A stretch of 32,000 nt of DNA from Psychrobacter cryohalolentis K5 (lineage in GTDB: Bacteria; Pseudomonadota; Gammaproteobacteria; Pseudomonadales; Moraxellaceae): NCBI RefSeq assembly GCF_000013905.1, contig NC_007969.1:1-32000 (forward strand). Direction: 5' to 3'. This document shows positions 26,744 to 32,000 of the stretch, piece by piece. Numbering within the stretch: position 1 is the stretch's first letter; each line of letters opens with the position of its first letter. Position numbers and translations under genes: made by a program. Under the pieces are notes generated by a model. The model was not told the DNA's origin. It saw only the letters and a program-made list of their open reading frames with translations, and made no database searches.

Positions 26744-26771
26744 GCGTTATACATAGATATATGTATAACGC
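26744..26771. terminator. Perfect 12-bp hairpin between convergent racemase and MATE genes
   Basis: GCGTTATACATA-gata-TATGTATAACGC. The right arm abuts the annotated MATE stop codon (26771..26773). There is no strong T-run, so it may be a terminator or a protein-binding site. Confidence 0.5.
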
Positions 26772-28345
26772 TATTGTCGTTTATTCTTTTTTATCACACG
26801 GAGTCTATGAAGATGAAGTCTTCTATGAAGTCGTCGATGCAACCTTGTGATACGGCGCAAAGGTGACAGCTTCCATACAGTCGTCGGTACAAGATCTCGA
26901 AACGACGCACTGGTGCCTGTATGCGCGCGAAACTCCTCAGACCTTTGCGCAGCTTCCTCTGCGGGCAAGTGTTTGCCTTTGCGCCATCCGCCGTACAAAT
27001 ATAGTCCTGCTCCCATCACGGCGGTTGCCACCATGCCTGCTGGAAAGGATAGCCAAAGGGCATCGGTTCCAAGTAGAGGATAAAGCCCGAAAGCAAATCC
27101 AAGACGTACTGGATACATCGAAATGACCATGACAATCAGCGGCCAAATCACATAACCGTTTGCACGCATGGTGCCAAACAAAACCTGTGCTATCCCAAAA
27201 AAGATAAAACCCCATGTCGCCATTAGCTGAATATGACGCCCAATCGGCACCGCTTCACTGTCACTGCCAAGGAACAAGCCCAGAATGGTCTCATCAAAAA
27301 TGGTTAGCAGTATGATAATAAAACCGGTCAATGTCAGATTAAAAATCAGTCCCCAGCGTGTGATCCCTGCGATTCGGTGCCATTGATTGGCACCGATGTT
27401 CTGTGCAACCATCGCACTGGCCGCAGCACTTAGCGCCATTGCTGGCATCTGCACGTAGGTCCAAAGCTGCTGGGTTGCGCTATAAGCGGCTGTGGTCTGC
27501 ACACCTTCGCGATTAATCAGCGATAACATTGTTAATGCTGCCGAAGAGATAACAATCATCTGTAGACCCATCGGCAAACCCTTTGAAAACATCGACTTCA
27601 GGATGTCTCGGTCTGCGCGCAAAAAGCGAAGCTCCGGCAACTTAAGCGTCAGCACAGAGCCACGCAGATACATAGTGGCTAACATGCCAATAAGCGCTAG
27701 CGTATTTGCGACGGCTGTTGCAAAAGCCGAGCCAAATATGCCCCACTCGGGAAATGGTCCTAGACCCAAAATCAGTGTCGGCGTCAAAATAAGGTCAATC
27801 ACGACCGATATAATGATAAACCAAAGCGGCGTCGTCGAATCGCCCGTCCCACGCAGTGCCATCATTATCAGCGTAAACGTAAGTGTGACAGGCATCGCAA
27901 TAAAAATCATGCGCAGATAGGTTAGGGCAAGCTCTACAGCACTTGCCGGCGTACCAAGCAGCTCAAGCAGCATCGGCGCAAATATCCACCCTACTGCCGA
28001 CACTATTACGCTTATCGGAATAATGCTGCCCAGCGCCGTGCCCATGGTTTTCTTAACCATAGCGTTGTCACGGCTGCCCATTGCCTGACCAATCAAAATA
28101 GTAGACGCCATACCGAAACCAAACACGAAGGAGATCAGTATAAACATCAAGATATTGCCGTTGGCTGTCGCTGCTAACGCTTCCTCACCCAAAAATCGAC
28201 CCACCCAGACAGCATTGATCGAGCCGTTTAATGACTGTAATGCAGATGACCCAAGGGTTGGTAATGCAAATAAGAGCATGGTTTTCGGGATCGAGCCTTG
28301 GGTGAGGTCACGCCGTTTACCAATGGAGGTATCTGTTTTACTCAA
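26771..28345 (-). CDS. MATE-family multidrug/sodium efflux transporter
   Basis: The 524 aa have the MATE N-terminus (IPKTMLLFALPTLGSSALQSLNGSINAVWVGRFLGEEALAA) and ~12 TM segments. The unusually long (~75 aa) basic C-terminal tail ends RRITRLHRRLHRRLHLHRLRVIKKNKRQ, so the 3' boundary is less certain. Confidence 0.85.
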   Translation of the reverse strand: MSKTDTSIGKRRDLTQGSIPKTMLLFALPTLGSSALQSLNGSINAVWVGRFLGEEALAATANGNILMFILISFVFGFGMASTILIGQAMGSRDNAMVKKTMGTALGSIIPISVIVSAVGWIFAPMLLELLGTPASAVELALTYLRMIFIAMPVTLTFTLIMMALRGTGDSTTPLWFIIISVVIDLILTPTLILGLGPFPEWGIFGSAFATAVANTLALIGMLATMYLRGSVLTLKLPELRFLRADRDILKSMFSKGLPMGLQMIVISSAALTMLSLINREGVQTTAAYSATQQLWTYVQMPAMALSAAASAMVAQNIGANQWHRIAGITRWGLIFNLTLTGFIIILLTIFDETILGLFLGSDSEAVPIGRHIQLMATWGFIFFGIAQVLFGTMRANGYVIWPLIVMVISMYPVRLGFAFGLYPLLGTDALWLSFPAGMVATAVMGAGLYLYGGWRKGKHLPAEEAAQRSEEFRAHTGTSASFRDLVPTTVWKLSPLRRITRLHRRLHRRLHLHRLRVIKKNKRQ

Positions 28346-28604
28346 TGTTTATCCTTTTGCGCTATGCAGGGCTGACTAAACAAAAGCGCTTATCATAAAC
28401 CAGAAAGCATCTACCGTCTTTATTAGAGCTGTAACCCCTCGGCAAACGCTATGATTATTTGCCTGTCATTTTTTTAGGCGATTGTCGAGCAATTTATAGG
28501 GGAAGGGTGGTTATTATAAGTTCTTAAACTTAAAATACTCTTGTGCTAGGATGATGCTTTTTGCTTCTTACTTCATTTTTCTAGTTTTCAAAAAGGATAT
28601 TTCG

Positions 28605-29792: not shown

Positions 29793-30848
29793 CTAACTCT
29801 CTCTCTCTCTCTCTCTTACCAATCGCTCTAGCAGTTCAACCGTGCGCTCTTGTCTAACCAAAGCGACACCTTGTCCTGCCCATAAAGATTGATGTTCGGC
29901 ATCGCGGTTTTTGGTTGCATGGGCACGCAAAAATTTGGTCATCGCATTTAATTGTGGGTAAGGCGGTAGCTCATGCGCGCTCTCAAATTGAGCAAAATCA
30001 TGCAAATAATCATTTAATAAACCACGAGCCTGTTTCCCTGAGAATAATCTGGTTAAGCGCGTCTCAGAGCTGCGCTTATCTTGGCTGGCATCGAGTAACG
30101 CTTGCTTATAAATGTCATTGATAGCGCATTTATCTGTGGTCAAAAATGCCGTCCCGATTTGCGCCAGCTCAGCACCAGCCGTTTGAACTGCTTTGATGTC
30201 CTGTCCGTTCATAATGCCACCAGCCGCGATTAAAGGAATATCGTTGCAGGCACGCGTTTGACTTATTAGCGTCAATAATCCCAATGGATCGTTTTCACTT
30301 TGCGGCAACCAACCACCGCGATGCCCACCCGCTTCGACCCCTTGCACGCATACCGCATCTGCACCAATCTCTGCCCATGCTTTTGCTTCCAATGGATGAT
30401 TGGCAGTACCGACGACCCGTGTGCCTAGACCTTGCAAACGCTGCACCTGCTCAGCGCTGATAATGCCAAAGGTAAAACTGGCGACAGGAACGGGATTGTC
30501 ATAGAGCACTTGTAGCTGCTCTGCAAAGCTTAGCGCTGGGTGCTTCGGCAGAGTAAATTCGATATTTTTCTCTTGATAGTACTTGCTTAGCCAAGTAGGT
30601 ACTTCGCTATCCAAAGCACTAGATTCATGCTCTGATAACACCATCAGATTGACCATAAAAGGATGATCGGTGAGCGATTTAATGGTGTTTATTTCACTAT
30701 TTAAAACGTCTGGCGCCGTCATGCCCGCTCCCAATGAACCCAGTCCACCAAAGTTACTGACAGTCGCTGCCAGCTCAGGGGTGGTTGCTCCTGCCATCGG
30801 CGCTTGAACAATAGGATATGTCAAATTAAGGGTGTTCAGTAAGGTCAT
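29793..30848 (-). CDS. Nitronate monooxygenase (NMO / 2-nitropropane dioxygenase family)
   Basis: MTLLNTLNLTYPIVQAPMAGATTPELAATVSNFGGLGSLGAG is the canonical NMO N-terminus. GGHRGG and IAAGGI blocks are also present, and an AAGGAAG Shine-Dalgarno precedes the start. Confidence 0.9.
   Translation of the reverse strand: MTLLNTLNLTYPIVQAPMAGATTPELAATVSNFGGLGSLGAGMTAPDVLNSEINTIKSLTDHPFMVNLMVLSEHESSALDSEVPTWLSKYYQEKNIEFTLPKHPALSFAEQLQVLYDNPVPVASFTFGIISAEQVQRLQGLGTRVVGTANHPLEAKAWAEIGADAVCVQGVEAGGHRGGWLPQSENDPLGLLTLISQTRACNDIPLIAAGGIMNGQDIKAVQTAGAELAQIGTAFLTTDKCAINDIYKQALLDASQDKRSSETRLTRLFSGKQARGLLNDYLHDFAQFESAHELPPYPQLNAMTKFLRAHATKNRDAEHQSLWAGQGVALVRQERTVELLERLVRERERES
29797..29816. repeat. (CT)10 dinucleotide microsatellite within the last codons of the NMO gene
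   Basis: CTCTCTCTCTCTCTCTCTCT was read directly. On the coding strand it encodes the terminal ...RERERES*. Confidence 0.95.
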
Positions 30849-30960
30849 GACAGGCTTCCTTGTTATTTTATGAGGAGTTTTGCATGACTCACTTTAGCAA
30901 AGCTGGATGGCGTGCGTGTTAGATATTGTTTATTTAGTTGCTGAATAGGAAGGTTGGTTT

Positions 30961-31036
30961 TTGACTACAAAGTTGTAGTTAAAAAATTTGACTACGATTT
31001 TGTAGTTAAGTATTATGACTATAAATTTGTAGTCAA
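30961..31036 (+). promoter_or_regulatory. Three 27-bp-phased palindromic operators overlapping a near-consensus sigma70 promoter
   Basis: ACTACAA-ag-TTGTAGT at 30964..30979, ACTACGA-tt-TTGTAGT at 30991..31006, ACTATAA-at-TTGTAGT at 31018..31033. The promoter is TTGACT (30988..30993), a 17-nt spacer, then TATTAT (31011..31016). An AAGGA Shine-Dalgarno lies at 31039 and the ATG at 31051. Confidence 0.7.
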
Positions 31037-31050
31037 CTAAGGATAAAAAG

Positions 31051-32000
31051 ATGAGTACAGGGAACATAGTGACAGGTGATAATTATTTTCCAAGACCTAC
31101 TGATGAAAATAAGCTATGGAGACATTTGTCAGATGGTGCTCATGTTCTATTGCTGGCACCTAGACGAGTAGGAAAGTCTTCAATGATTACTCATATTAAA
31201 GATCAACCAAAATCAGGTTATGCAGTTATATATGTTTTCGTGCAAGCTTGTGATAATGAGCAGAGCTTTTATCAAAAAATGCTACGTGAAATCTATCGTT
31301 CTGACCATATTAAAAAATCTGAAAAGATAAAGAGTAAGCTCTCAGAGTGGGCAAAAGGTATTAATTTTAGCTTGTCAGTTAGTCCAACGAACATCGAAGC
31401 TGGGTTAGGTAAAGAAAAGGGTGAGACCAAAATAATTACTCATGAAATGATTCGAGATGTACTGTATGAGAGCCTGAAATTGAGTGAAGAGACCATCATT
31501 ATTGCAATTGATGAATTCCCTGATGTACTGGAGAAAATATCTGATGAACATGGTAAAAGAGGTGTAGAGCAGTTTTTATCGGGTATTCGCGCACTGTGTC
31601 AAGACCCTGAGTTCAACGAAAAAGTTCAGTTTATCTTAACAGGCTCGATAGGGTTAGATACATTAGCAGAAAAATTGGCAGTTACCGACTTAATTAATAT
31701 GTTGGTGAATATGAGTGTTCGCCCTTTTAAAGACGATCGAGCAGTAGAATTTATAGACTTTTACATTAATAAGCACTGTTCAGAAGTTATTCTAGATATA
31801 GAGACTAAGCAAGCAATCATCGATGAAGTAGGTTGGAATATGCCCTACTATTTAGGGCTAGTATGTGAGCAGCTTATTGAAATATTTGATGAAGAAGAAC
31901 GTCAAATCGAGCATAGCGATGTAAAGGTAGCTATCAACAGTTTGTTTAGTCCAGCAATGAAAACCGTCTTTTCTCATTGGCGTGATAGATTAAACCGTCT
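31051..32000 (+). CDS. P-loop NTPase, PF01637-like (Arch_ATPase/STAND-type) ATPase, 3'-truncated by window edge
   Basis: Hand translation is open from ATG 31051 to the end of the window (316+ codons, no stop): MSTGNIVTGDNYFPRPTDENKLWRHLSDGAHVLLLAPRRVGKSSMITHIK... Walker A is APRRVGKSS, Walker B is IIIAIDEFPD, and the sensor-like block is FILTGSIG. It is not in the ORF track because it has no stop in the window. The gene is AT-rich. Confidence 0.8.
   Translation, partial: MSTGNIVTGDNYFPRPTDENKLWRHLSDGAHVLLLAPRRVGKSSMITHIKDQPKSGYAVIYVFVQACDNEQSFYQKMLREIYRSDHIKKSEKIKSKLSEWAKGINFSLSVSPTNIEAGLGKEKGETKIITHEMIRDVLYESLKLSEETIIIAIDEFPDVLEKISDEHGKRGVEQFLSGIRALCQDPEFNEKVQFILTGSIGLDTLAEKLAVTDLINMLVNMSVRPFKDDRAVEFIDFYINKHCSEVILDIETKQAIIDEVGWNMPYYLGLVCEQLIEIFDEEERQIEHSDVKVAINSLFSPAMKTVFSHWRDRLNR

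Follow-up and report, generated by a model that had tools for sequence, protein, structure and literature searches.

A paired-ATPase operon behind a phased array of putative operators in a Psychrobacter defence hotspot: a candidate immune module

The window analyzed here, the first 32,000 nucleotides of contig NC_007969.1 of Psychrobacter cryohalolentis K5, contains at its right edge the beginning of a gene (gene A) coding for a P-loop NTPase, preceded by three copies of a palindrome that lie on its promoter (Table 1). In the other loci that we have compared, A is followed by a second ATPase gene (gene B), and the two genes form an operon of about 3.3 kb that makes up the whole module. We consider it probable that the A-B pair is a mobile, autoregulated, STAND-like two-gene operon and a candidate immune module.

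The pattern ACTAYRA-NN-TTGTAGT was found by scanning at 30964-30979, 30991-31006 and 31018-31033 and at no further site in the 32 kb (six strand-matches against 0.04 expected), and a repeat finder returned three 27-nt units with spacing 27/27. Both methods agree with a first-pass annotation of this DNA, made from the letters alone, that had placed three palindromes at 30964, 30991 and 31018, 27 bp apart. Read as 20-bp sites they are TGACTAYNNNNTTGTAGTYA, referred to here as O1, O2 and O3, and the letters of the whole region 30960-31050 are TTTGACTACAAAGTTGTAGTTAAAAAATTTGACTACGATTTTGTAGTTAAGTATTATGACTATAAATTTGTAGTCAACTAAGGATAAAAAGATG. The overlap with a TTGACT-17-TATTAT promoter and the transcription start that had been proposed also holds, with O2 spanning the -35 and the spacer, and O3 spanning the expected start from the final base of the -10 onwards. 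The window contains no Rfam family or tRNA anywhere, which rules out a structured RNA or a tRNA target at this site. The G+C content of positions 31001-32000 is 0.35-0.37, compared to 0.38-0.50 over most of the window, although equally low values are found elsewhere (e.g., 0.32 at 1001-1500); the contrast of 30 vs. 48% given in the first-pass annotation had the right direction but was overstated. Because the operator arms hold TTGAC on both strands, there is also a leftward promoter-like sequence, TTGACT-16-AATACT (9/12 matches), on the minus strand at 31036..31009, facing the neighboring gene nmo, and the array might influence the transcription of nmo as well. As the main explanation for the array, nmo regulation was rejected, since A-B has the array also in loci without nmo (L002 and L007; numbers with L denote the loci compared) and in other phyla.

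Table 1. Position of the genes and control elements at the right end of the window.
Feature	Position	Strand	Description	Basis
nmo	29793..30848	-	Nitronate monooxygenase-like, PF03060; core gene, left border of the hotspot	Open reading frame list; Pfam on orthologous loci
nmo-proximal intergenic flank	30849..30960	.	Conserved across Psychrobacter regardless of cargo	260 nt beside nmo compared in 62 loci
Operator O1 TGACTACAAAGTTGTAGTTA	30962..30981	.	Perfect 7+7 dyad, core 30964-30979	Kept in orthologous loci
Sigma-70-type promoter TTGACT-17-TATTAT	30988..31016	+	TTGACT 30988-30993, 17-nt spacer, TATTAT 31011-31016; 10/12 consensus positions	Promoter scan
Operator O2 TGACTACGATTTTGTAGTTA	30989..31008	.	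Left arm is the -35 hexamer	
Operator O3 TGACTATAAATTTGTAGTCA	31016..31035	.	Over the expected transcription start; only where A-B is present	
Ribosome-binding site AAGGA	31039..31043	+	7 nt ahead of the ATG at 31051	Read from the sequence
Gene A, first 316 of 396 codons	31051..32000	+	AAA+ NTPase and most of the helical lid	Translation, homologues, AlphaFold2 model

The reading frame that starts at 31051, already recognized in the first-pass annotation as running off the right edge, stays open for 316 codons up to the window edge and has the motifs of a P-loop NTPase, namely Walker A APRRVGKS (31156-31179, beginning at residue ~36), Walker B IAIDEF with DE at 31510-31515, and sensor-1 TGS (31639-31647). 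Full-length homologues have 395-396 amino acids (aa), and a profile search gathered 1,102 clusters at 50% identity (E <= 1e-30), nearly all of 380-405 aa; the A-B family has at least 1,100 clusters at this level. The AlphaFold2 (AF2) model of a full-length homologue with 89% identity (pLDDT 89.7) begins with an AAA+ domain, followed by a helical lid, and closes with a C-terminal winged helix at residues ~319-396, i.e., just past the window edge. The modeled protein terminates at this winged helix and carries no sensor arm. Foldseek ranked archaeal ORC1/ORC2/Cdc6 as the nearest folds, followed by Avs3 and by nucleotide-binding oligomerization domain (NOD) modules of plants and animals, with the MalT structure 8bob also among the matches. 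The single sequence-level relative in the PDB was the Pyrococcus PF01637 protein 2qen (E 3e-4). The assignment to PF01637 in the first-pass annotation was correct as to the best Pfam family, but the scores are below the cut-off of 33.2 (the fragment reaches 27.4 bits and the full-length homologue P0002 reaches 29.6) and the closest fold is ORC/Cdc6.

Gene B was studied in 80 metagenome loci, with A at 27–100% identity, plus genome and plasmid loci. B comes directly after A, with an overlap of 11-20 nt, in all the genome loci and nearly all the metagenome ones. Its product has ~690 aa (678-820 aa or more across the extended loci) and is made up of a P-loop G.RG.GKT with the Walker A beginning at residue ~58, a lid, a MarR-like winged helix at ~300-375 and a variable C-terminus. 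The latter is all-alpha in the AF2 model (residues 381-688, pLDDT 78.1) and matches TPR in distant homologues from Pseudoalteromonas, Colwellia, Marinomonas and Methylococcales. A and B have homologous NTPase domains (hhalign 96%, E 1.5e-9), and B has fold matches to DNA-bound archaeal Orc1/Cdc6, Apaf-1 and CED-4. When B was compared between two Psychrobacter strains, residues 1-447 were 82% identical whereas the last ~240 aa could not be aligned, which is the pattern that a swapped sensor arm would leave. The B of the nearest relative scored 32.8 bits against PF01637, and only the Pseudoalteromonas B passed the cut-off (34.8). Residues 300-350 were below the cut-offs of the MarR families (MarR_2 18.3 vs. 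27, HTH_27 17.1 vs. 22.2), and DprA_WH was over its cut-off (24.6 vs. 22.9) in the Pseudoalteromonas homologue only. Some sources label B homologues as “MarR family transcriptional regulator,” and its winged helix, sub-threshold as it is for the Pfam MarR families, is predicted to work like that of a MarR-family regulator. A subgroup (L042, L044, L046, L051, L063 and L174:5890-5990, a Clostridium tagluense plasmid) has a partner of only ~520 aa with no G.{4}GK[ST] motif within its first 150 residues, and here two palindromes are followed by a conserved leader TTGTAAATATAAGGAA.

The first-pass annotation had placed the repressor and effector genes beyond the window, to be sought in a further 10-15 kb to the right. 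An island of 10-15 kb is ruled out, as every extended locus consists of A and B and then core genes (dsrE-like, 4HBT thioesterase, hydrolase, yigZ-like, rluA-like, dsbC, dnaJ and dapB). No separate repressor or regulator gene was found in any extended A-B locus. What stands of the proposal is that the predicted DNA-binding parts are located beyond the edge, since A has its winged helix from residue ~319 on and B is wholly outside; the small helix-turn-helix gene is not there. Neither is the effector, since no enzymatic effector domain could be recognized in A or B with Pfam, PADLOC or the models, and no effector gene in the loci.

We compared 54 non-redundant A-B upstream regions belonging to several phyla with shuffled sequences. 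A TTGACN-16/17-TANNNT promoter within 120 nt of the start was present in 48 of them (mean 0.54 in the shuffles); the TTGACN -35 was inside a palindrome in 48/54, and the best self-similarity shift was exactly 27 bp, again in 48/54. The commonest site of the family is TTGACAA-N8-TTGTCAA, in which the half-site equals the -35 consensus. The 27-bp-phased array is found also at the plasmid copies in Moraxella and Clostridium. The array is kept across the family, and in Psychrobacter it partly survives even without the cassette, neither of which was visible to the first-pass annotation. The tight repression that had been postulated fits this promoter design, shared by 48/54 family loci, which looks like that of a tightly autoregulated unit. 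Dyads located over the -35, the -10 and the transcription start, conserved and co-varying with B (see below), are what is expected of a negatively autoregulated operon, and it is quite likely, judging from these patterns, that the cassette itself encodes the protein for which the sites serve as operators.

The half-sites fall into classes, with GACTAY in the Psychrobacter/Moraxella lineage and TTGCA/TTGCG in two loci, and the recognition helix of B, of pattern [ST]-K/N-x-[VI]-S-A-Q-L, follows them. The helix SKT goes with GACTAY in 10/11 loci (including L030, where A comes from an unrelated clade), [ST]K[AVQLNHE] with GACAA in 41/41, and [ST]N[EQ] with TTGCA/TTGCG in 2/2. In contrast, the helix of A does not track the operator. 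The loci L002 and L007 agree in operators and B helix, yet their A helices are different (SRYVINCL vs. TNYVLDCL), and in distant lineages the A helix region is not conserved. Since the half-site co-varies with the recognition helix of B and not with that of A, A, which came into question because of its C-terminal winged helix, is less likely as the binder and B is the likely autorepressor, so that we regard B as the probable ligand of the operators.

We have surveyed the position of the cassette in Psychrobacter by anchoring on the 4HBT gene in 80 species representatives (L093-L172), of which 71 were long enough to judge. A-B was present between dsrE and nmo in five of the 71 (L103, L107, L110, L121 and the decayed L108), and nmo adjoins the hotspot in 62 loci. 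In L108 (9347-12690, chromosome of Psychrobacter sp. WY6) A-B is found as frameshifted fragments only, and those of A include stretches identical to the A of the window, indicating that the cassette decays in some lineages. P. faecalis is polymorphic, with an empty slot in the type strain and A-B in another strain. The slot varies between 0.7 and 5.9 kb, has a G+C of 0.30-0.38 and holds more than 20 types of cargo. PADLOC detected in the same slot of other species AbiJ, AbiU, type IIG and type II restriction-modification (RM) systems, PDC-S33, a PARIS AriAB fusion (E 1e-114), the viperin pVip (E 1e-93) and Dazbog DzbA/DzbB (E 1e-138 and 1e-57). NsnA/PD-T4-2-like DUF262 proteins, a PtuB-like HNH protein and RelA/SpoT-like proteins were also found. 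A-B therefore is a defence-hotspot cargo in the sense of occupying a variable slot between core genes that holds known systems in other strains, and the defence-type context suspected in the first-pass annotation is real (AbiJ, PARIS, Dazbog, viperin, AbiU and RM in the same place). The slot also holds large proteins without a PADLOC match (1193/1197 aa, a NACHT-like one of 606 aa, 488 aa with coiled coil and transmembrane segments, and 469 aa). This dsrE|nmo slot is a clean and well-bounded defence hotspot of Psychrobacter that is useful for mining further systems.

Outside Psychrobacter, A-B was found on plasmids of Moraxella, Clostridium, Segatella and Methylomonas (four phyla), and its neighbors differ completely between taxa. 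Among them are Avs1a, Avs4, HamA, LmuA/B, DpdE/ZorD-like helicases and mad2/3. In the Moraxella osloensis plasmid pNP7-2 the pair is beside qatD, a QueC-like gene, a kinase and insertion sequence (IS) elements. A phage-borne cassette was ruled out, as neither the 50,697 phage records searched nor IMG/VR contained a match to A-B. The A-B segment is accessory and horizontally mobile, as the first-pass annotation had anticipated, given its presence in 5/71 Psychrobacter species, the polymorphism within P. faecalis and the plasmid copies.

We have also compared A-B with known families. Searches of A and B against PADLOC-DB v2 and NCBIfam 20.0 yielded only sub-threshold matches at the level of P-loop or winged helix-turn-helix, such as PDC-S01 (E 1e-3), mad8 (E 3e-8, part of the profile only), the Csa3/CasR winged helix-turn-helix (E 1e-5) and DS41_1 (16-22 bits vs. 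a cut-off of 370). A known defence system is thus excluded by these two libraries, in agreement with the first-pass annotation, which could not assign the arrangement to any named system. The literature that we searched on PF01637/DUF234-type and Cdc6-like ATPases in an anti-phage context does not describe the A-B pair. PF01637 ATPase_2/COG1672 with DUF234-like winged helix (2qen) is the best Pfam family for both proteins, and they share with it the N-terminal F-x-R motif, the P-loop and the C-terminal “Y.F..P.L..WW” winged-helix tail. However, A is an outlying relative, and the strict A-B pairing and the array are not described in the libraries and literature searched.

The AF2 models of both A and B have the order of a STAND NOD (nucleotide-binding domain, helical domain and winged helix), and Foldseek detected STAND-type matches to Avs3, Apaf-1, CED-4 and NRC/ZAR-type NLRs. 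The STAND label given in the first-pass annotation is right to this extent, but A, lacking a sensor arm, falls short of a full STAND protein. Nor do A or B have what marks the immune-type STANDs, i.e., a fused effector or a match to an Avs or NACHT model, and the Pfam NACHT and nSTAND matches are below cut-off. B resembles Avs/AVAST and bNACHT in its nucleotide-binding domain, helical lid and winged helix, in a C-terminus that may be a repeat-type sensor arm and that varies between strains, and in the location at a defence hotspot. It differs in that A-B lacks an N- or C-terminal effector domain, B always comes together with a paralogue that has no sensor (A) and has a canonical MarR-like recognition helix, and the pair has a putative self-operator throughout the family. 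According to excerpts of the reports on CapW/BrxR WYL, CapH/CapP and CapK/CapS (PMC9122588, PMC9122589, PMC13373217), the promoter of an immune-type operon is there overlapped by a palindromic operator. The logic would presumably be shared, with a costly or dangerous module repressed until a signal arrives, but the regulators of those systems are separate small genes, usually divergently transcribed, whereas in A-B the predicted DNA-binding domain is inside an ATPase and there are three phased sites. We think that A-B is best read as a STAND/ORC-like candidate immune module, which would work in the manner of a STAND sensor joined to a MarR-type autorepressor, with ORC/Cdc6-like folds as building blocks. 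Its distinctive traits are the obligate pairing, the lack of effector, the predicted internal repressor and the conserved triple operator.

Orc1/Cdc6 proteins bind dyad-containing repeated boxes beside their own gene, sometimes as heterodimers. In the stretch from the AAA+ domain through the lid to the winged helix, the archaeal ones (2v1u, 2qby, 1w5s) are the best structural match for A and B alike. The top Foldseek matches were 1w5t, 2v1u, 2qby, 1fnn and eukaryotic ORC/Cdc6 (E 2e-8 to 1e-5), a likeness at the level of fold only, with 11-15% identity. This opens the question of whether A-B and its phased repeats are the remnant of a replication or maintenance module of an integrated mobile element, with iteron- or origin recognition box-like sites, since origin-bound archaeal Orc1/Cdc6 are the top fold matches, the repeats adjoin an initiator-like gene and there are plasmid copies. 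We regard this as very improbable. The repeats coincide with the elements of a sigma-70 promoter and not with an AT-rich unwinding region; A-B is bacterial, accessory and hotspot- or plasmid-borne, without a replication context. Its chromosomal copies have no other mobile-element genes, the plasmids that bear it have typed replicons of their own, and the 50,697 phage records and IMG/VR contain no copy. A strain-variable sensor-type TPR C-terminus, such as the putative arm of B, would also be unexpected in an initiator. The promoter-embedded sites and the lack of replication genes argue as well against ORC-type origin binding or helicase loading as such.

MalT, AfsR and GutR offer another parallel, as they couple an ATP-dependent STAND switch with a TPR-type arm to DNA binding. 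A-B could be a STAND-type transcription-factor pair of this sort, sensing a metabolite or a stress and regulating distant genes rather than acting in immunity. Neither protein has an effector domain, both have winged helices, some annotations name B a transcriptional regulator, and the operator-like sites of cassette-free genomes could mean that there are further users. Nevertheless, we find this unlikely. The known proteins have a separate terminal LuxR- or SARP-type DNA-binding domain and defined metabolic regulons, whereas A-B has no linked regulon, there is no conserved target operon beside the pair in any of ~90 loci, and no other operator site appears within the 32-kb window. The slot is otherwise filled only by defence genes, and the presence/absence polymorphism inside one species and the hypervariable C-terminus of B also speak against such a pair.

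Immunity against phages or other mobile elements is, in our view, a reasonably probable function and the most likely role, because the place where A-B is found is a bona fide defence hotspot with many other occupants as alternatives. In the mechanism that we envisage, the winged helix of B would occupy O1-O3 as dimers and compete with RNA polymerase, occluding the -35 and the transcription start and giving rise to negative autoregulation. The variable C-terminus would be the likely sensor of the trigger. By analogy with STAND proteins, binding of ligand and nucleotide would lead to oligomerization, probably together with A, that would change the DNA binding and derepress the operon. As output, the ORC-like ATPases could bind or remodel DNA, or there could be a burst of expression.

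Several observations weigh against this picture. With no effector domain and no PADLOC or NCBIfam model match, defence is guilt by association. The co-variation between half-site and B helix rests on ~3-4 independent transitions and is confounded by phylogeny, and the winged helix of B need not bind DNA, because it is located at the structural winged-helix position of every STAND protein. The Walker B of B is invariantly D-N (D156 N157 in the alignment, e.g., L001:2976-5045), compared to D-E in A, which suggests that A is the active ATPase and that B could be a nucleotide-binding switch that hydrolyzes weakly or not at all. Finally, at least 24 Psychrobacter genomes without A-B at this site (examples are L098, L104, L118, L123, L124, L129-L134 and L140-L167) have kept O1 and O2 beside nmo, in the 27-bp phase, something that a purely cassette-encoded binder does not predict. 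The comparison of the slot beside nmo that had been proposed in the first-pass annotation gave a double answer, as A-B is variable (5/71) but part of its array persists without it.

These leftover sites have arms that are at least 90% conserved and centers that are only 40-70% conserved, and foreign cargo of at least ten kinds, in either orientation, begins within ~2 nt of GTAGTTAA(G/A) and of the end of O2 (or O1). O3 and the TATTAT -10 are found only with A-B, and some lineages retain one operator or none. Both the arm conservation and the recurrent junction speak for another reading, in which the palindromes would be a structural or recombination element at the left edge of the hotspot, or a site for a host factor, and not (or not only) an operator of A-B, which would just be adjacent. 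We consider this quite doubtful all the same, because the array moves with A-B to places where nmo is absent (L002, L007), to plasmids and to other phyla, is placed exactly on the -35, the -10 and the transcription start of gene A, and has a half-site that co-varies with the B recognition helix. Besides, one site or both are gone from several lineages, as would be expected of relics, and there is no recombinase nearby. At the right border of the hotspot, formed by the dsrE terminator hairpin, there is no palindrome or repeat, and this rules out a cassette-type recombination via a second palindrome. It is simplest to suppose that A-B occupied the slot early and that its promoter-proximal sites survive as flank, the cargo having been swapped by flanking homology, with single 27-bp units lost by slippage. 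This relic reading does not fully account for the arm conservation and the recurrent junction, which leave room for a trans-acting binder or a role as a breakpoint.

The autoregulated immune module that we favor can be joined to the leftover sites in a way that we put forward tentatively. A-B would be a new and widespread anti-phage system without an effector, in which B, repressor and sensor at the same time, would sit on the triple operator that mimics the -35 and leave the DNA on sensing infection. It would then join A in a nucleotide-dependent complex that would act on nucleic acid itself, e.g., by clamping or remodeling phage DNA in an ORC-like manner, without a fused enzyme. The leftover O1/O2 would mark the promoter of the cassette as a recurrent breakpoint for the exchange of defence cargo.

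Two further features were noticed in the rest of the window. A NadR-like gene (CTP_transf_like and AAA_28) that close relatives have between the MatE and hydrolase genes (L010:5343-6413) is missing at 28346-28550, a second small presence/absence difference nearby. The MatE-family reading frame at 26771-28345 on the minus strand has a low-complexity tail rich in Arg, Leu and His (…RRITRLHRRLHRRLHLHRLRVIKKNKRQ), with orthologues called at 520-526 aa, and this tail may be a real extension or a repeat read-through.

If the immune role is confirmed, a common and unnamed two-gene family, with a range that covers Gammaproteobacteria, Clostridia, Bacteroidota plasmids and many metagenomes, would join the catalog of prokaryotic immune modules. 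It would also be a rare case of a sensor ATPase that carries the repressor function of its own operon, with a predicted promoter design (a half-site that is the -35 hexamer, three dyads and a 27-bp phase) and a predicted residue-to-base code (SKT/GACTAY, SK[A/V/Q]/GACAA and [ST]N[EQ]/TTGCA).

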